A stretch of DNA of 64,000 nt from Spirochaetia bacterium (GCA_963675665.1 OY776510.1:4672001-4736000); one strand, 5' to 3'. Shown: positions 2,828 through 11,519, counted from the stretch's first letter. Notes: generated by a model not told the origin, from the letters alone. Program-made: numbers and translations.

Positions 2828-2976
2828 TTTGAGCTCCCGTTCAATAAAAAAGCTACGCGGTAGCTTTCAATTACATAGTAACTGAAAGTTACATAATAAC
2901 TTTCAGTTGCCATGCAACCCTCAGCTGCAGAACAGCTTTTACGAGATCCGAAAAACGAACCTCAATAAAAAAAATA

Positions 2977-3050
2977 CAGGCCAGGTAGGATTCGAACCTA
3001 CAACATCCGGTTTTGGAGACCGGCGCTCTAGCCGTTGGAGCTACTGGCCT
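2977..3050 (-). tRNA. tRNA-Trp (CCA), 3' CCA not encoded
   Basis: Cloverleaf AGGCCAG...CCGGT-CTCCAAA-ACCGG...GTTCGAATCC...CTGGCCTG. Confidence 0.97.
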
Positions 3051-3059
3051 GTATGTTAT

Positions 3060-3236: not shown

Positions 3237-3266
3237 AATATGACTCTCCTAAATTCCTGACTATAG

Positions 3267-3339
3267 AGCCTCCGACCGGATTTGAACCGGTGACCCCATC
3301 CTTACCATGGATGTGCTCTACCGACTGAGCTACAGAGGC
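3267..3339 (-). tRNA. tRNA-Thr (GGT), 3' CCA not encoded
   Basis: Cloverleaf GCCTCTG...CATCC-ATGGTAA-GGATG...GGTTCAAATCC...CGGAGGCT. Confidence 0.97.
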
Positions 3340-3384: not shown

Positions 3385-3628
3385 TAAGAATTAGCTTGTT
3401 TTTGTCCTGCCCCGCAGGATAGAATATTAGTATAATTTTGAAAAAGGGGCAATAATAAAATCGTGCATCCGTGTACGATTTTATTTTGAAGTATCAAAAA
3501 AATTCTTTTTTTTAATACTTCAGACTTTCCTGGCACCCGCATCCTTGCTGGACTTTATTATTTTGAGCTTATATTGCAGACTTTCACGATGACTTTGACC
3601 GGCAACGGCAAGGGATTTTACGGGAGGA

Positions 3629-4432
3629 ATGATGAAATCACCGAAAGAGACCGCTCTGGATAAAAGAATACTGAAAAAAGTCAATGATAAATGCAGGGCT
3701 GCAGCAGAATACATGATAAGAGATCCGGAAATAAAGTATCTGCAGGATTATGCCAATACAGTCTCAATAAAGCGGCTTAATTACAATGATCACGGCCCGG
3801 TGCATATGCGCAAAGTGGCCCTAAACGCCCTCACAATGGCGCGACTTCTTGAACAGCAAGGCATCAAATTCAGCCTTGAAACAGAAGGGTGCGGCAGCAG
3901 GGAAGACAGTATGGTATCAATTCTGACGGCGACTTTTCTGCATGATATTGGCATGTCCGTCGGAAGAGCTGATCATGAGAAAATTTCCGTAACCCTTGCA
4001 GTGCCTATCATAGACAGGATAATGAAGCATGTTTACCAGGATGATATCGAGCGAATTGTAATCGGCAGATCACTTGCCCTTGAATGCATAATCGGGCATA
4101 TGGGAACCCGGAAAATCCATTCTCTTGAAGCAGGACTTGTTCTTATAGCCGACGGTCTTGATATGGAAAAAGGCCGGGCCAGAATACCCATGATGATAGA
4201 AACCGGCGCCCAGGTTGGCGATATCCATAAATATTCCGCATCGGCAATAGAAAAAGTGGAAATGGAAGTCGGAAAACACAAACCGGTCAAGATTATTGTC
4301 TCCATGAAAGAGTCCGTCGGGCTTTTCCAGATCGAGGAAGTCCTTTTTCCCAAGATCAATTCAAGCCCAATGAAATCCTATATTGAACTTTATGCGGCGG
4401 TTGGAGAGGAAAAAACAAAGAGATATCTTTAA
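3629..4432 (+). CDS. HD-domain metal-dependent phosphohydrolase
   Basis: NDHGPVH, FLHDIG, H, ADGLDM metal-binding motifs; GGGAGG SD. Confidence 0.85.
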   Translation: MMKSPKETALDKRILKKVNDKCRAAAEYMIRDPEIKYLQDYANTVSIKRLNYNDHGPVHMRKVALNALTMARLLEQQGIKFSLETEGCGSREDSMVSILTATFLHDIGMSVGRADHEKISVTLAVPIIDRIMKHVYQDDIERIVIGRSLALECIIGHMGTRKIHSLEAGLVLIADGLDMEKGRARIPMMIETGAQVGDIHKYSASAIEKVEMEVGKHKPVKIIVSMKESVGLFQIEEVLFPKINSSPMKSYIELYAAVGEEKTKRYL

Positions 4433-4584
4433 TTATTTAACCGTTTATGATGGAGAGATTGATTGGTTTCAGTATCTGTAGCCTATTATTGATGTGACAT
4501 ATAATTTTTTTGAGTAAAGAATTGATCTTCCAAAAATGACAGGATAGTATCGTCAATGTTAAAAAATAATTCAAAGAGGGGAAA

Positions 4585-4986
4585 ATGAAAAAGATTCTTA
4601 CTTTATTAGGACTTATAGCACTATTTCTGGTTTATGCATGCAATCTCCCAGGACCTTCAAACCTTTATGGCCTGGTCGGAGAATGGGTTGTTACCGAGAT
4701 CCCGACTAACGTAACGGCAGATTATTCAAATTATGAGAAACTAATTTTTACCAGTACTAAATATCAAATTGAGAACAAAGCCGGTGATATTTTTGAAAGC
4801 GGTTCTATTAGTAATGTGACCGATAGTTCATATAATTACATTATGGAACAATTTACTCCTGAACCAGCTTATGAAGGTTCTGAATGCAGCGCTGTATTCT
4901 CAATTAATAGCAAGGTGTTAACAATCACTTTTCACAATAGAGAGAAAACGGACAATTATGGAACTTTAAAAGCTGAAAGATTATAG
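4585..4986 (+). CDS. Hypothetical lipoprotein (lipocalin-like GxW motif)
   Basis: Signal peptide ending LVYAC; LVGEW; AT-rich; GAGGGG SD. Confidence 0.7.
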   Translation: MKKILTLLGLIALFLVYACNLPGPSNLYGLVGEWVVTEIPTNVTADYSNYEKLIFTSTKYQIENKAGDIFESGSISNVTDSSYNYIMEQFTPEPAYEGSECSAVFSINSKVLTITFHNREKTDNYGTLKAERL

Positions 4987-5044
4987 TTGAGAACAAAACA
5001 CATCATCTCTAATTACAAACTCAGTTGTTTAGCATTAATATTTC

Positions 5045-5145
5045 TATATTTATGTTGTTTCCGTGATGCTTTACTGTAATTGAAATCTTTATTTCATTAT
5101 ATGTATTTCAGTACACTGTTTTTGCCGTGTATTTTATTTGATTAG
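5045..5145 (+). repeat. Island intergenic repeat, copy A
   Basis: TTGTTTCCGTG...CTTTACTG...TATTTCATTATA...GTATTTCAGTACAC shared with copies at 5668, 6615, 10080. Confidence 0.75.
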
Positions 5146-5216
5146 CGAGAGGGAGAAATAGGCGTAGCGGTTACGTTTGACTTTAACTTAAGAAACCGTT
5201 TATAGTCCAAATACAC

Positions 5217-5600
5217 ATGAAAAAGACTTTATTAGTAATATTTCTTTTTAATAGCACTTTATTATTTTCTTTAGATTGCTACTCATATAAATATAACGAA
5301 GACATCACTTATGCAATCGTAATATCTCCATCTCAAGCTTATAACGATGAGTTTGTTGTCGGATTATTAGAGATTGATCCTTCCGGATCTGAACGGTGGA
5401 CAATATCAACCAGAACAATCATTGATGAGAATAATGCCTTTAAATCAAAAATTGACGTTAACTTCCCAACAATCCTGATAAAAAAAGATTCTATCGATGT
5501 TGAAATAAACAGAAAAAACAATGTTATCTTACATCTGAATAAAGTCAATAAAATTACCTATAAAAACTGTGATGTTGTTATACCATTAGTCTTTTTTTAA
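5217..5600 (+). CDS. Hypothetical secreted protein
   Basis: MKK plus hydrophobic signal peptide; AT-rich; no recognised domain. Confidence 0.6.
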   Translation: MKKTLLVIFLFNSTLLFSLDCYSYKYNEDITYAIVISPSQAYNDEFVVGLLEIDPSGSERWTISTRTIIDENNAFKSKIDVNFPTILIKKDSIDVEINRKNNVILHLNKVNKITYKNCDVVIPLVFF

Positions 5601-5667
5601 CTGAGGCACCTGCCCCAATCAATCCGCAATCGTACCGACACTGAAAGCAACCTGGTTCTATTCAAAG

Positions 5668-5751
5668 TCGTTACCTTTACACTGCTTCCTTCGTTCTCTA
5701 CGGAATCAGACACCCATATTTCTCCATATATATGAAAGTATTTCAATACAC
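5668..5751 (+). repeat. Island intergenic repeat, copy B
   Basis: GTCGTTACCTTTACAC...TACGGAATCAGACACCCATATTTC...GTATTTCAATACAC; ungapped similarity to copy C over about 56 nt. Confidence 0.7.
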
Positions 5752-5860
5752 ATGATGATTCAAAAGAAGCCTATTCTTTCAGGGGATAATGGATTAATCT
5801 TCAGTTCTCTAATATATTACGAACAGTATTGGAATAGTTATACAGGAGAGGGTATCGCTT

Positions 5861-6520
5861 ATGAAGCGGTCGACACAAATTATCGTATCGTCTCTCTTTT
5901 ATATGTTTGTAGCTGTCGGTGCCAGTTTAATTGTAAAAGCCAATGTCGGAATGGACTGTTTTTACGCATTTGTAAAAGCTATTTCAACTGTAACTTCAGT
6001 AAAAGTCGGGACCCTGGTTGCAGCGGTCAACTTTTTATTTATGGTTTTTTATATCATTTTATCCGAAGGTAAACATATTCAGGTTTACATCATTCAAGCA
6101 GTTTCGATAATTATTTTTGGTTCAATCGTCAATTTTCTGCTCTACAATGTTTTCAGCCATTTTGATTTAACCAATTATTTTGAAAGATTAACTGTACTTA
6201 TTTCAGGGGTGGTCATCTCCGGCATTTCCATCGGCGTAATAACAGTTTTACATATAATTACGTTTTCTATTGAAGCAACATGTTACCAACTGGAAAAGTT
6301 GCATAAGTTGTCATTTATTAAAGCGCGGTATGGTATTGATTTATTATTCCTGATTACATCATTATCAATATCATTCATTTTCAAAACAGGTTTTTTTATC
6401 AGGGAAGGGACTTTGATAGCCATAATTTTATATTCGTTCATACTGAATTTATCAAAATTATTTGCACAAAAGCACTTTAATATCAGCATCCCGCTTCATA
6501 AAATTGATGAAGATCTTTAA
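5861..6520 (+). CDS. YczE/YyaS/YitT-family membrane protein
   Basis: About 6 TM helices; ANVGMD, KVGT, IREGTLI motifs; GGAGAGG SD. Confidence 0.75.
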   Translation: MKRSTQIIVSSLFYMFVAVGASLIVKANVGMDCFYAFVKAISTVTSVKVGTLVAAVNFLFMVFYIILSEGKHIQVYIIQAVSIIIFGSIVNFLLYNVFSHFDLTNYFERLTVLISGVVISGISIGVITVLHIITFSIEATCYQLEKLHKLSFIKARYGIDLLFLITSLSISFIFKTGFFIREGTLIAIILYSFILNLSKLFAQKHFNISIPLHKIDEDL

Positions 6521-6614
6521 CTTCATTAATTGTTATGTTATTAGGTTTTACATCCTATCTTTATACTTTAATCAACTATTCTTTGGGTATCTCATGGCTA
6601 AAACAATTAAAGTA

Positions 6615-6729
6615 ATCGGTAACTTTACGTTATGCTCTTCCGTCTTTACTGTATTAGATACCCTTATTTCATTATATTGTATATAAGTATTTCAGTACAC
6701 TATTATCGCTGCGAAGTTTAATTGGTTAG
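6615..6729 (+). repeat. Island intergenic repeat, copy C
   Basis: ATCGGTAACTTTAC...CTTTACTG...TATTTCATTATA...GTATTTCAGTACAC...TTAG; matches copy A along about 100 nt. Confidence 0.75.
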
Positions 6730-6797
6730 AAAAAACAGATAGACAATCTATAACTTCTTCAATACAATAATTTCAGATTAAGAAAGCGGGACATCGA

Positions 6798-7661
6798 ATG
6801 AAAAAGATTACCTCAGTCATTGTTTTACTTTTAATTGCAGTTTCTTCTGTTTTTTCTGATAATCAGAAAATTATTACAGTTATGGACTTTGAAACGAGTG
6901 GAGTTTCAGAACAGGAAATGACACTTATTGTCGATTTCTTATCATCTTCAGTTAGTGATTATGAAGATTACATTTTAATTGATAGAAGACAACGTGAAAT
7001 CATTTTATCTGAAGCTCAATTTTCAAATAGTGGGTGTGCTGATGAGTCCTGTGCAATTGAGATAGGACAGTTACTCTCTGCTAGTGAAATGATTGTCGGC
7101 AGTTTAGGTAGTGTAGGCTCTTGCTATCTTATGAATATCAAACTTATTGATGTCGAAACAGGTAAAACAATTAAAGATGTCTCAGAAAAATATGGATCTA
7201 TTGACGAATTGGTTGATGGAAGTGAATTTATAATCAGCACACTTTTCAATAAGACTGCTAAGATTGAAATTAAAGCAGTACAAACAGAAGATGTCCAGAA
7301 TACTGTTACATCAGTTAATTCAACACCTGTAATAGAAACTTTTTCTTTTGGTTCATACCCTGACAAAGTTACTCTAAATAAAGAAATGTATGACACCGCA
7401 AAAAGAAACCGTGGCTTGAAAATCACATCCGGAATACTCTATGGCATTGGTGGCGTTTTCACGGTATTAGATATAATTGGGCTTGTTGGCAGTGGCGGGC
7501 TACCAACTGATAATGATGGCTGGACTATTTTTTTTAGTTTTACAGGTGGTAGTATTGTCGGATTATTGGGGGGGATAATTACAGGCTCACTTACTGAACC
7601 AGTTTACGATATTGATGGACTAAAAACAAAGGTAAGCGGTAATTCTTACCCTATGTCTTAA
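6798..7661 (+). CDS. Exported CsgG/HfaB-like domain protein with C-terminal TM helices; last residues supplied by IS66
   Basis: Signal peptide; VMDFE...IDRRQ..ILSE...GC.DESCAIEIGQLL...IDVETG pattern; IS66 end lies inside its 3' end. Confidence 0.7.
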   Translation: MKKITSVIVLLLIAVSSVFSDNQKIITVMDFETSGVSEQEMTLIVDFLSSSVSDYEDYILIDRRQREIILSEAQFSNSGCADESCAIEIGQLLSASEMIVGSLGSVGSCYLMNIKLIDVETGKTIKDVSEKYGSIDELVDGSEFIISTLFNKTAKIEIKAVQTEDVQNTVTSVNSTPVIETFSFGSYPDKVTLNKEMYDTAKRNRGLKITSGILYGIGGVFTVLDIIGLVGSGGLPTDNDGWTIFFSFTGGSIVGLLGGIITGSLTEPVYDIDGLKTKVSGNSYPMS

Positions 7662-9183
7662 TCTGCTCGGGTGTCATGTTGAACGGCAGCAGTTCTTCAT
7701 AATCAGCCTGTTCTACACAATACGGCAGCTTACGAAAAACATAGTAGAAATAATCATAGACAGAAAGTTTCTGCAATTTAGCCGATTCAACAAGGCTGTA
7801 AAGAATCGCCGAAGATTCAGCACCTCGCTCCGTATCTGAAAACAACCAGTTCTTCCGGCCGATCACAAATGGCCGTATTGCGTTTTCAGCAATGTTGTTC
7901 GACGGTGTCAACAGCGGATTTTCAAGATATAGTTTTAACTGCGCCCAATTATCAAGTGTATATGCAATAGCTTTCCCAAACGACAGAGAGGGAGGTGTAA
8001 GCGCAGCCTGTTCAGTAAGCAGCTCAAACAATGATTTCAGAATCGGTCCAGCCTTGTTTTCTCGTTGCTTTTGAAATCCCTTTTTAGAAAAATCAGCTCT
8101 TAATTCTTCAAGTTCAAAAAGCTTCTTAATCAGATCAAGTATCTGTTTAGCCTCCGGAGATTTAGACATTTCCCAATATTTATAAAAATACCTTCGGGCA
8201 TGTGCCCAACATAAAACATGCCGAATGGATTTATTTCCGCCATTGCGCAACTTTTTCAGGGCAGTGTGATAAGCTTCATAATCATCAGTTTGAAGCCAGC
8301 CGGTATAACTTTGCAGGAAATCATTCGGGATTTCATGAGAACGGCTGGTTTCATACTGGAATACAACCGATTTTTTATCAGGTTTTCCGCCGAGAAATAC
8401 CCACATCCAGGATTTGTCCTGCGCCTTCCGGCCCGTTTCTTTCAATACCTGAACACGGGTCTCATCTGCATTTATAACCGGCCCGTTTTTGATATTATCT
8501 TTAAGCAGTTCATAAAGCGGCCTGCATTTTTCAGCGCATTTTATCGCCAAAGTACTTAATGTAGCCCGTGGTATATCTATTCCTATTGCAGAGAGCCTTT
8601 TGCTTTGTCTGTAAAACGGTAAGGCATATTCAAACTTTTCGTTTATGCTCCAGGCAAGCAGACTTTCATCAGCGATACTTCTGCCAATCAGATGTTTCGG
8701 GCCGGATGCTGTTTGAACTCCGGCTTCATCATTAGCAGTACCTTCACAGCTTCGGCAGGCGTATTTCTTCTTTATTTCGCGTCGAACAATTACTTTCGCA
8801 GGAACTATGCATGCGCGCTCCGATACATCCTCACCGATGCAGACCTTTTCGGCTCCGCATTCACATATTTTATCTTCCTCATCTATATCGTATTCAACGA
8901 TCTCTCTATGAAGGTCTTCCGACAGAGCTTTTCTCCCGGCTCCTTTACGAACAGTTTTTGTATGGGCTTTTACTTCCCGGGTTTCGGTTTCAATTTCATC
9001 CTGCTGTTCAAATGCGGAATCTTCGGCTTCGTTGAATAGAGACGCCTGCTTCTTGTCTTCTTTTGTAAGCTTCTCCGACTTCGCTCCGAAATGAAGCATT
9101 TGAAGCATGTGTACATGTTCTTTTAGCTGAGCATTTTCTTTTTTCAGCCTTTCAATTTCATCACGCAACTGCTCATCACTCAT
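7651..9183 (-). CDS. tnpC: IS66 DDE transposase TnpC
   Basis: FGAKSEK, Cys zinc-finger region, ADET, QTDDY, CWAHARR, NNIAENAIRP, GRKNWLF. Confidence 0.96.
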   Translation of the reverse strand: MSDEQLRDEIERLKKENAQLKEHVHMLQMLHFGAKSEKLTKEDKKQASLFNEAEDSAFEQQDEIETETREVKAHTKTVRKGAGRKALSEDLHREIVEYDIDEEDKICECGAEKVCIGEDVSERACIVPAKVIVRREIKKKYACRSCEGTANDEAGVQTASGPKHLIGRSIADESLLAWSINEKFEYALPFYRQSKRLSAIGIDIPRATLSTLAIKCAEKCRPLYELLKDNIKNGPVINADETRVQVLKETGRKAQDKSWMWVFLGGKPDKKSVVFQYETSRSHEIPNDFLQSYTGWLQTDDYEAYHTALKKLRNGGNKSIRHVLCWAHARRYFYKYWEMSKSPEAKQILDLIKKLFELEELRADFSKKGFQKQRENKAGPILKSLFELLTEQAALTPPSLSFGKAIAYTLDNWAQLKLYLENPLLTPSNNIAENAIRPFVIGRKNWLFSDTERGAESSAILYSLVESAKLQKLSVYDYFYYVFRKLPYCVEQADYEELLPFNMTPEQIKT

Positions 9184-9221
9184 AACAGGAGACTAGCATT
9201 TTTAAATTCGAGTGGGAAGCC

Positions 9222-9566
9222 CTAAACGCGGGAATATTTTAATTGTTTATGTGCCTTGAAAAAATCTATTCCGTCAAGCAGCATCTTTAACTCTTCGAAC
9301 TTTATCTCTCTTGCATCCTCTTCCGTTTCAGGCCAGGGAAACTTATTCTTCTCCAGTCTTTTCTGCCAGAGACAAAAGCCGTTACGATCCCAGTAAATGA
9401 TCTTCAACAGCTTTCTTTTACTGTTGCAGAAAAGAAACAGACTTTTTGAGAACGGGTCGTTCTGCATTATATTCTGAACAGTAACACTCAATCCATTAAC
9501 GCCCTTTCGCAGATCTGTTTTGCCGGGCCGGATAAAATATCGGTAATTTGTGTAATCGAAAATCAT
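9222..9566 (-). CDS. tnpB: IS66 accessory protein TnpB
   Basis: TDLRKG..GL, LFLFCN, KIIYWD.NGF.LWQKRLE. Confidence 0.96.
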   Translation of the reverse strand: MIFDYTNYRYFIRPGKTDLRKGVNGLSVTVQNIMQNDPFSKSLFLFCNSKRKLLKIIYWDRNGFCLWQKRLEKNKFPWPETEEDAREIKFEELKMLLDGIDFFKAHKQLKYSRV

Positions 9567-9862
9567 TCGAGTCCCCCGATTACCTGAAGAACTGATTTTA
9601 ACTGGGTTTCATTAAAACCGGCTGTTATTGAAATCTTAAACTTTTTTGTTTCAATAACTATCTGTGCGGCCGGTGATGAGAAAACAGGTTTAACCTCAAC
9701 AACAGCGGAATCTCCGGGGCAGCCTTGTATGCCGATTCTTTTTCTGTGTTTATAAAAGGTGTTTGGGTGTATCCCAATTTCATTGCAAAACTCCGGAATC
9801 GATTTGCAGCTCTGTCGGTGCTGCTCAAATATTTGGTCCCAGTTTGTAATCTTTTTACCCAT
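9563..9862 (-). CDS. tnpA: IS66 accessory HTH protein TnpA
   Basis: W...S..SI.EFC...GI...TFY HTH pattern; overlaps tnpB by 4 nt. Confidence 0.9.
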   Translation of the reverse strand: MGKKITNWDQIFEQHRQSCKSIPEFCNEIGIHPNTFYKHRKRIGIQGCPGDSAVVEVKPVFSSPAAQIVIETKKFKISITAGFNETQLKSVLQVIGGLE

Positions 9863-10079
9863 CTTATTCCTCCTCGATTTTTCAAGGAGAATAATGCATT
9901 TTCAGTTTTTCGCAAGAAGGCAAGAATTACCGCTTACAAACAAAGTACTGATAAAAGCCTATTGTACGCTCAATATTTAAATTTATATTGCCTTAAAAGA
10001 AGCTTAATAAATATCAGTAATGAAGTGATTCAAAGACAGAGTCACCTGTCCCACTTCACGACAAACCTAACAATGCACA

Positions 10080-10133
10080 GTCGCCAACTTCACATTGTTT
10101 CCGTGTGTCTTTACTGAATCAACTGAATTCATT
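10080..10133 (+). repeat. Island intergenic repeat, copy D (left half only)
   Basis: GTCGCCAACTTCACATTGTTTCCGTGTGTCTTTACTGAATC aligns ungapped with copies A-C. Confidence 0.65.
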
Positions 10134-10182
10134 GAACAGATAAAAATACAGGGAAAAACAAAGGCGTTGCTATACTCTTAAT

Positions 10183-11415
10183 CTATTCGCCGAGATGACG
10201 GCTGATAATCTTTGTATTGTCGAGCAGCGAGCTTAACGAATTACCGTGATGGACCCTTGATATGGTCCGGGCAAACAGTTCGCTTATACATGCGGATACG
10301 TACCATTCACGGCCGAGAACCTCGTCAGTATGATAAACAGCGTTTGTTCCGATTATAGTGTCGAACAGTCCTTTCTGATATGCATCTTCAAAGCTGTCTA
10401 CAGCATTGCCGGTAAACAGCGGAAGACTGACGGCACAGATTATCTTTTCAGCGCCTTCCTTTTTCAGCATTTCCATGGCTTTTATCAGTGTACCGCCGGT
10501 GCCCAGCATATCATCAGCCATAAAGACAGTTTTGCCCTTTACATCGCCGAGCAGCCTCATGTTTGTAATGTTATTTGATGCTGCGTCCGAACTTACCCTG
10601 GAGTAATCACGTTCCTTATAGATCATGGCAAGCGGTTTCTTGAGTGTTCCCGCAAAAAACTTGTTTCTGTCTATTGCTCCCGTATCCGGCGAAACAACAA
10701 CCAGATCGTCGCTTTCCAGATCAACAAGCTCGCTGAGCTCGCGTATAATCTGGTAAGACGCGTGAAGGTTCTCGAGATGAAGCTTGCTGAAGGTCATTTC
10801 TATTGCTTTTGAGTGTATGTCAAGCGTAATGATCCGTGAAACTCCCATCTGCTCACAGGTCCTGCCGAACCATGAAGCGGTCAGACCTTCGCGGCCCTTC
10901 TTTTTATGCTGACGGCTGTACGGATATAACGGAACAACAATCGTTACGCTTCTGGCGCCGGCACCTATAACCGCGTCAATTGTTGTAAAAAGAAGCATCA
11001 TGTGATCATTAACTGACATGGATACAGGCTTTCCGTCATTATTAATATCCATCGGGTAATGATTGCCTGGGTCCTGGATAAGATAAATATCCATATCCCT
11101 GATGGACAGCTGTATTTCTGATTTCACTTCGCCGTTTGCGAAACGTGTAAACTTTACTGGCACCTGATATGCAGGGGCTTTATACTTTGTCACATCCTTT
11201 GCACGGTGGCCTTTTCTGGAAGTCAGTTCATTTACAAAATTTATATTTTTTATTACTTCTTCCCGGGTATAATCATATCTCGACACAAGAGAGTCGGCCG
11301 TCTTCTTATAATACTTCAGGTAGATAGATTTTAGATCTGAAATTATCTCATTAGTAATCTTTTCAGCTCCCGGACATGCAATAATACCCAAGAGAGATGA
11401 ACGCGTAAATACCAT
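10183..11415 (-). CDS. prs: Ribose-phosphate pyrophosphokinase (long spirochaete type)
   Basis: RFANGE, YPYSRQH, TLDIH, VSPDTG, DDMLGTGGT PRPP-binding loop. Confidence 0.93.
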   Translation of the reverse strand: MVFTRSSLLGIIACPGAEKITNEIISDLKSIYLKYYKKTADSLVSRYDYTREEVIKNINFVNELTSRKGHRAKDVTKYKAPAYQVPVKFTRFANGEVKSEIQLSIRDMDIYLIQDPGNHYPMDINNDGKPVSMSVNDHMMLLFTTIDAVIGAGARSVTIVVPLYPYSRQHKKKGREGLTASWFGRTCEQMGVSRIITLDIHSKAIEMTFSKLHLENLHASYQIIRELSELVDLESDDLVVVSPDTGAIDRNKFFAGTLKKPLAMIYKERDYSRVSSDAASNNITNMRLLGDVKGKTVFMADDMLGTGGTLIKAMEMLKKEGAEKIICAVSLPLFTGNAVDSFEDAYQKGLFDTIIGTNAVYHTDEVLGREWYVSACISELFARTISRVHHGNSLSSLLDNTKIISRHLGE

Positions 11416-11519
11416 AGAAACCACCAGAATTTGATAGCTGACTGTAACATATTGTTCCTGTAGTTTTCAATACAGGGAAGAAAATAATTCCCATATTCAT
11501 ATTGCGAATCAGTATCTGC

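Follow-up and report, generated by a model that had tools for sequence, protein, structure and literature searches.

A low-GC island in a spirochaete chromosome read as a tandem stack of single-gene units between att-type junctions of ssb-targeting elements

The chromosome of a Spirochaetia bacterium (G000; GCA_963675665.1, OY776510.1), a single contig of 5,150,563 bases with 43.3% guanine plus cytosine (GC), contains an island in which four co-oriented genes alternate with copies of a repeat. We studied this island in a window of 64,000 nucleotides (nt), the whole stretch analysed (G000:C1:4672001-4736000), where it occupies positions 4433-10182 (G000:C1:4676433-4682182); positions given without a contig name refer to the window. 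We read the repeat as the att junction of serine-recombinase elements that target codon 7-8 of ssb, and the island as a tandem stack of four single-gene units, and assign this reading a probability of about 60%.

The repeat is about 140 nt long and consists of two separable halves, an L-half of about 40 nt, ending in TACTG, and an R-half of about 100 nt. All island copies are on the + strand. Repeat A (5036-5175) comprises an L-half at 5036-5076, with TACTG at 5072-5076, and an R-half at 5077-5175; repeat B (5664-5800) has an L-half up to 5703, ending in TACGG (5699-5703), and an R-half at 5704-5800; and in repeat C (6612-6755) the L-half at 6612-6651, with TACTG at 6647-6651, is followed by an R-half at 6652-6755. 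Repeat D (10078-10133) differs in that its L-half (10078-10116, with TTACTG at 10111-10116) runs into an ssb-like segment at 10117-10133. The alignment of copies A and C extends over about 90 nt with 79-85% identity; A and D are identical at 19 of 22 nt (5055-5076 and 10095-10116), and B and C at 18 of 21 nt (5731-5751 and 6680-6700). An earlier reading of this DNA made from the sequence alone (the sequence-only reading) had described four copies that align over about 45-56 nt, with D keeping only the left half. The four copies are real and D is indeed an L-half without an R-half, but the repeat as a whole is longer and bipartite.

A profile built from the four copies matched only A-D in the entire genome, with expectation values (E) from 2e-29 to 4.8e-10, the next best match having an E of 1.9. 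As this search is circular, we repeated it with leave-one-out profiles, each of which, run against the whole genome, regained the copy that had been left out of it (A, 8e-10; B, 5e-11; C, 2e-22; D, 1e-3) over a background of E 2.4 or worse, showing that the similarity noticed before is beyond chance. A profile made from the three copies of other genomes alone ranked the island copies first to fourth in G000 (E 8.5e-19, 2.6e-7, 3.6e-4 and 7.4e-3), followed by a match with E 0.76. A miniature inverted-repeat transposable element or another dispersed repeat of the repetitive extragenic palindrome type is ruled out, as there are only four copies and all of them lie in the island.

Scanning 11 family genomes with a sequence-only covariance model revealed copies in three of them, four in G000, two in G001 and one in G008. 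The single copy in G008, which belongs to a related genus, is an R-half (46.9 bits); it is on the strand opposite to ssb and directly abuts the 5' end of this gene. The distance between ilvE and ssb is 130-250 nt in G000, G003, G004 and G010, and about 39.2-39.3 kb in G008. The G008 insert has a GC fraction of 0.30-0.42 and encodes, beside its ilvE end, a large serine recombinase of 516 amino acids (aa) with Resolvase, Recombinase and Zn_ribbon_recom domains, as well as the terminase, portal, prohead protease, major capsid and tail tube proteins that mark it as a prophage. Set against the sister genome G010, where the site is empty, the insert has clean junctions, and the crossover falls at GTATT within ssb codon 7-8. 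The displaced start and first seven codons of ssb remain at the ilvE end of the prophage, and the other end, which is joined to ssb, is the R-half. Therefore, the R-half contains the P' arm. It would also carry whatever restarts ssb, because the native promoter, the ribosome-binding site and the ATG are now 39 kb away. The sequence-only reading had placed the recombinase outside the window and pointed to the neighbourhood of other copies; the prophage that ends in an R-half in G008 does encode a large serine recombinase. Contigs of four sequencing runs were also compared, and one from metagenome run X7 shows the same junction of ssb and repeat (loose end at 6646). An X7 joint from 4426 to 5215, supported by 21 letters, was disregarded. 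The viral contigs searched contained no relatives of the G008 integrase.

Following the prophage insertion, the ssb gene of G008 (L039, G008:C1, about 6150-6599) is left with no in-frame ATG, GTG or TTG as a start, an ATT preceded by AAGAG being the sole start candidate seen, and a second ssb paralogue, 35% identical, lies on another contig of that genome. Near the right end of the prophage (L039 4867-5628) the cargo includes an orphan Rhs-type C-terminal open reading frame (ORF) with a 'YYNARWYDP...' core and a variable tail, which is 85% identical over 138 nt to G000:C1:3519588-3519725.

The second line of evidence comes from repeat D. Its part to the right of TTACTG (10111-10133 with the core) is an antisense copy of ssb codons 1-7, identical at 22 of 23 bases. 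Allowing up to three mismatches, this 23-mer occurs in the 11 family genomes only in D itself and at the ssb starts of G003 (1 mismatch), G000 (3) and G005 (3), and the reversed 23-mer, used as a control, has no match. With a 27-mer of D the ssb start is the single best match in G000 (6 mismatches), four other places having 7. At the protein level the minus strand of D reads MNSVDSVKTHGNNVKLATVHC and then stops, and the SSB of G000 begins with MNSVNSVIIEGNLV. Compared with ssb of G003, D is identical at 16 of 17 positions to the right of the core, at 11 of 27 to the left and at 4 of 25 beyond the ATG; compared with repeat C, it is identical at 16 of 27 positions to the left and at 8 of 17 to the right. 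This sharp switch of identity at the core marks D as a recombinant, hybrid site.

The arms also differ in the position of an outer motif. From the core to TTCAT the spacer is 11 nt in all eight B-type arms, namely five ssb sites (G000, G001, G003, G004 and G010), attL of G008, D and the second G001 copy (G001_2), and 16 nt in all five P'-type arms, namely A, B, C, the first G001 copy (G001_1) and attR of G008. The motif is varied to TTCTC in B and to TTTAT in G001_2, and the rows of A, G001_2 and the G001 ssb were read by eye; the left arms showed no clear outer motif. Excerpts of a published account of serine integrases place the outer motif, which is bound by the zinc-ribbon domain, 5 bp nearer to the centre in attB-type than in attP-type half-sites (PMC3783163). 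Judged by the two spacings, the R-half is thus a P'-type arm, whereas D has a B-type arm on its right, and both derive from att sites.

In G001 the two copies bound a second low-GC island at another place (GC fraction 0.28-0.34, compared with 0.49-0.54 around it), which consists of a full L-R copy, a gene for a 309-aa Fe-S protein, a gene for a 170-aa membrane protein on the opposite strand and an L-half-only copy. The latter, G001_2, is built like D, with L joined to an ssb-like start. The Fe-S protein gene behind the repeat (L024 2183-3112) resembles reductive dehalogenases and QueG (TIGR02486, 77.5 bits, cut-off 160). Searches further afield added no copies: among 151 genomes sampled from the class, matches were confined to G000 and G008 apart from a 19.7-bit match in G152, which we take as chance, and an exact R-half pattern retrieved two stretches from the genome collection, which are the known places in G001 and G008, and none from the metagenome collection or the viral contigs. 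A looser pattern gave two stretches in the viral contigs, neither fitting the repeat model, and 53 in the metagenome collection, all of which score 19.9 bits or less compared with 38-97 bits for true copies and were dismissed as chance matches.

From these observations a model of the island can be drawn. The R-half would be the right end of an integrating element, made up of the P' arm plus about 100 nt, and the L-half the other arm of the element. Repeats A, B and C would then be L-R junctions as they arise between tandemly integrated elements, and D, in which L is joined to ssb codons 1-7, an attL-type hybrid, so that each unit would have the order R-gene-L, with four units head to tail. The stack may have grown by serial site-specific integration, that is, tandem accretion, or may be the remnant of four tandem prophages. 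Its present place between an HD-domain gene and prs, instead of at ssb, would make it ectopic, and it would be a relic or at most be mobilisable in trans. As a speculative route, an aberrant excision may have had its outer break where the B arm ends, and the excised DNA may then have been reinserted into a pseudo-site coinciding with the stop codon of the HD-domain gene. Our data show that the R-half and the right arm of D stem from att sites, that the island is foreign and that the enzyme is missing from G000; that L is the P arm, that the stack grew by tandem accretion and that it moved to where it lies now are what we infer. For the sequence-only reading, which had proposed serial site-specific accretion at a non-attC site by a recombinase encoded elsewhere, this amounts to partial support: the layout fits and the enzyme class has been located in G008, whereas no gain or loss of a unit was seen.

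Several observations weigh against our reading. The island lies away from ssb, and the site in the ssb gene of G000 (G000:C1:473600-474043) is intact. Excerpts of the account cited above state that serine integrases do not recombine attP with attL or attR and, without a directionality factor, accept only attP and attB (PMC3783163), and because of this restriction the stacking of L-R junctions is unexplained. For D and G001_2 alike, the homology to ssb does not continue past the start codon, although a simple attL at this gene would not be expected to break off there. No match to PF00239 or PF07508 is present in G000, which thus lacks a serine recombinase altogether, and a homologue of the G008 integrase is missing as well. 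Only seven copies of the repeat in three genomes are known in all, and the sister strain X3, the one close strain compared, carries the same four genes. At the left end of the island, from the stop codon of the HD-domain gene to a point upstream of gene 1 (4433-4540, + strand), there is a degenerate R-half, but it is weak, scoring 1.6 bits and being matched by 7 of 1000 shuffles and by 16 of 2000 low-GC genomic windows.

The L-half poses a further difficulty. It bears no likeness to the P arm found in G008, local alignments of the L-halves to that prophage arm not being significant, nor is it a mirror image of the R-half. Instead, all six L-halves resemble ssb codons 8-19, the B' arm, in register, with 10-12.4 identities in 24 positions compared with a mean of 6.3. 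Among 10,562 24-mers taken from the genome in front of TACTG, these values fall within the top 0.1-3.3%, but, the six L-halves being relatives of one another, the likeness counts as about one observation. L may thus be either a decayed arm of ssb, which would turn A-C into attR-type scars, or a P arm resembling its target by mimicry. On the first of these views L would represent decayed ssb codons 8-19, and the L-R junctions, each with the end gene of a phage, would have been left at ssb by different prophages, have accumulated there and later have been moved en bloc. The in-register matches speak for this, as does the finding that GTTTCC and TTCCTTCG stand at the same distance from the core in the L-halves and in ssb. 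Yet there is no known process that would duplicate ssb codons 8-19 with each integration, D has 41% identity to the left of the core and 94% to the right, unlike a plain ssb fragment, and local alignment of the L-half to ssb is not significant in five of six copies, which were matched or beaten by at least 197 of 1000 shuffles; the exception is the L-half of G001_1 against ssb of G000 (12 of 1000). We therefore regard a stack of attR scars as unlikely.

The strain comparison bears on whether units come and go. Run X1, which probably represents the source sample, yielded an independent contig that is identical to the window over 3600-9462, so that the layout is no assembly artefact. The X3 contig has 88 differences over 3600-6513 (among those listed, one at 4399 and 30 at 5978-6172), 6514-6620 is replaced by 18 nt, and there follow six differences in 55 nt at 6621-6675 and then six in 964 nt at 6660-7623. 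Strain X3 thus has a diverged allele, seen as a mosaic patch of lower identity at 5978-6690 that reaches from inside gene 3 into repeat C, while being about 99% identical otherwise. Such a pattern suggests that an allele was exchanged by homologous recombination, not that units were swapped. Among the contigs of the four runs we saw no joint between repeat copies, no excised circle and no gain or loss of a unit. Sample X3 also yielded further low-depth contigs with other repeat copies.

These data can be set against a scheme in which the island is a serine-recombinase counterpart of an integron: single-gene L-R circles would be captured one after another at a portable dock, D, that mimics ssb, with a superinfecting phage supplying the enzyme in trans and the incoming L replacing the resident L, thereby rebuilding the dock at each insertion. 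Such capture would account for units that are uniformly small (0.4-0.9 kb, one gene each) and have kept both arms four times, and for the fact that both known arrays end in L plus an ssb-type site; the diverged X3 allele of unit 3 that extends into repeat C and the X3 contigs with other copies are in line with it as well. If it were true, stacks of accessory envelope genes could grow at places other than ssb. We consider it improbable, given that neither a circle nor a gained or lost unit nor a recombinase in the genome was found, that two arrays are known in all, and that the X3 patch ends inside gene 3 and in the R-half, as homologous exchange would, and not at the core.

A role of the repeat in expression instead of recombination, as a portable promoter or 5' leader duplicated before each envelope gene, would be compatible with the position of the conserved block 98-110 nt upstream of the starts of genes 2-4 and of a G001 copy about 90 nt upstream of a gene. 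In G008, though, no co-oriented ORF longer than 32 aa follows within about 470 nt of the R-half, and the element faces ssb on the other strand; no gene follows D, the ssb arm of which would be unexplained. Scans for sigma-70 promoters and terminators did not exceed shuffled controls, with 12 promoter-like matches found compared with 15.1 expected and none in the repeat. We hold this explanation to be very unlikely.

Finally, the island might be an integrase-less cassette array (CALIN) of the genome's own integron, as a true intI (TIGR02249, 392 bits compared with a cut-off of 265; G000:C1:4525299-4526318) and a large attC array are located 150 kb away. In place of IntegronFinder we used an attC profile built from seven resident sites, which gave 76 matches at E 10 or better, all of them outside the island. 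The island repeats lack RYYYAAC and GTTRRRY ends and form no hairpin: DNA folds of the four copies on both strands had z-scores from -1.81 to +1.35 over 8 folds, not below shuffles. The tests thus refute this explanation and bear out the sequence-only reading, which had held the repeats not to be attC sites. An Rfam scan of 4300-10300 gave only a sub-threshold snoRNA match (E 0.67), which we take as noise. The integron itself (G000:C1:4417881-4526318) has more than 50 attC-like sites of about 140 nt in one orientation, distributed along about 106 kb, and a few isolated attC-like sites occur near 3.039, 3.519-3.523 and 3.919-3.923 Mb.

The island separates, by 5.75 kb, an HD-domain gene (3629-4432, + strand; Pfam HD, E 1e-4) from prs, the gene for ribose-phosphate pyrophosphokinase (10183-11424, - strand; Pfam Pribosyltran and Pribosyltran_N). 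Its GC fraction is 0.28-0.385 over 4401-7400 compared with 0.45-0.48 in the flanks, in agreement with the AT-rich block noticed in the sequence-only reading. The HD-prs interval was readable in 6 of 10 family relatives (in G005, the two genes are on separate contigs), and in five of these, G001, G002, G004, G008 and G010, the gap is 17-70 bp. As HD and prs are adjacent there, the island is an insertion, and it is foreign to this place. G003, the sixth, has a different insert of 2.9 kb in the spacer (L023, G003:C41, 2846-5699), without a repeat copy and with two genes on the minus strand, one for an FGE-sulfatase lipoprotein and one for a CsgG-like protein; a similar gene pair is present at G000:C1:4539891-4543370. 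Insertions may thus have entered the spacer between HD and prs repeatedly. The island border is not at a transfer RNA (tRNA) gene, the nearest ones, tRNA-Trp (2976-3051) and tRNA-Thr (3266-3339), being more than 1 kb to the left of the island, where they stand among secE, nusG and rpmG-like ORFs to the left of the HD-domain gene.

The four unrelated + strand genes lie where the sequence-only reading had put them, with the repeat between them. Gene 1 (4585-4986) is an ORF for a predicted lipoprotein of 133 aa without a match in Pfam, NCBIfam or PHROG, for which a protein atlas gave a lipocalin-like lead at 0.94. Gene 2 (5217-5600) encodes a protein of 127 aa with a signal-like N-terminal segment and likewise without a family match in Pfam, NCBIfam or PHROG, and gene 3 (5861-6520) a multi-pass membrane protein of 219 aa with a weak NCBIfam match to YczE (E 1.4e-6, under the curated cut-off). 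Gene 4 (6798-7661) codes for an envelope protein of the LpoB/CsgG/TP0183 kind, as suggested by matches to LpoB and TP0183_fam below their cut-offs. Within the genome, genes 1-3 have no paralogues and gene 4 has at least 16. A PHROG scan of the island proteins gave no match, and neither the list of ORFs nor a Pfam scan contains a recombinase within the island.

At its end, gene 4 is interrupted by an element of the IS66 family (7632-9937, - strand) with three ORFs (Pfam DDE_Tnp_IS66, 2.6e-85; TnpB_IS66, 1.8e-35), as had been recognised before. It is bounded by inverted repeats of 19 nt (7632-7650 and 9919-9937) and flanked by a target duplication of 8 bp (7624-7631 and 9938-9945), and the X3 contig joins 7623 straight to 9938, so that the element is precisely absent from this strain. 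Its insertion is therefore recent. According to the native gene end deduced from the X3 contig and the sequence, the last codon is all that it alters in gene 4. The identity of the island element to the nine other IS66-like places in G000 is only 77-78%, so that this version is present in a single copy.

If our reading is correct, a family of temperate spirochaete phages targets the 5' end of an essential gene, ssb, and brings its own replacement start, and its att junctions mark a route by which single accessory genes can be stacked. The island would be the case of tandem accretion by serine recombinases with the smallest units and a structural parallel to integron cassettes with a different enzyme. 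The sites described here also provide natural attP, attB, attL and attR sequences for an uncharacterised serine integrase. Our literature searches retrieved no report of an element that integrates at the ssb 5' end and supplies a new start, and nothing relevant on serine-integrase prophages of spirochaetes.

Among known systems, the prophage of G008 belongs with the phages that use large serine integrases (A118/LI, phiC31, Bxb1), its sites showing the same 5-bp shift of the outer motif; such phages are not known to us to leave behind single genes stacked between att junctions. In ICESt1/CIME of Streptococcus thermophilus, too, elements accrete site-specifically, whether or not they have genes for recombination; this system would share the process with the island but differs in enzyme, a tyrosine recombinase, in target, the 3' end of fda, and in the large size of the elements. 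Closer parallels are found in islands built by serine recombinases. In staphylococci, the SCC composite islands at orfX arise by tandem accretion through serine recombinases of the CcrB family. The ssrA islands of Dehalococcoides are likewise described as products of such accretion by a serine recombinase, with recombinase-less 'cis-mobilizable elements' among the units (PMC3146451). With these two kinds of islands, the island would have in common serial integration by large serine recombinases at one site in a single-copy essential gene, site repeats between the units and some units without a recombinase. The ssrA and SCC islands have repeats of about 20 bp from the 3' end of the target, a stack beside the target and multi-gene units of kilobases, whereas in G000 the junction measures about 140 nt, ssb would be targeted at its 5' end, each unit has one gene and the stack is off target.

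Integron cassettes resemble the island in that one gene is combined with one site, the unrelated genes are co-oriented and the recombinase is encoded elsewhere, but in the island the enzyme class is another one, there is neither a single-strand hairpin site nor an attI-intI platform, and each unit seems to bring along an upstream region of its own. An undescribed gene-capture system, which the sequence-only reading had considered, is not supported, since the sites belong to a known class, that of the large serine recombinases of temperate phages, and tandem accretion has already been described. While enzyme class and accretion process are thus known, the ssb 5'-end target with a phage-borne replacement, the one-gene units and the ectopic stack without an enzyme of its own would be new.

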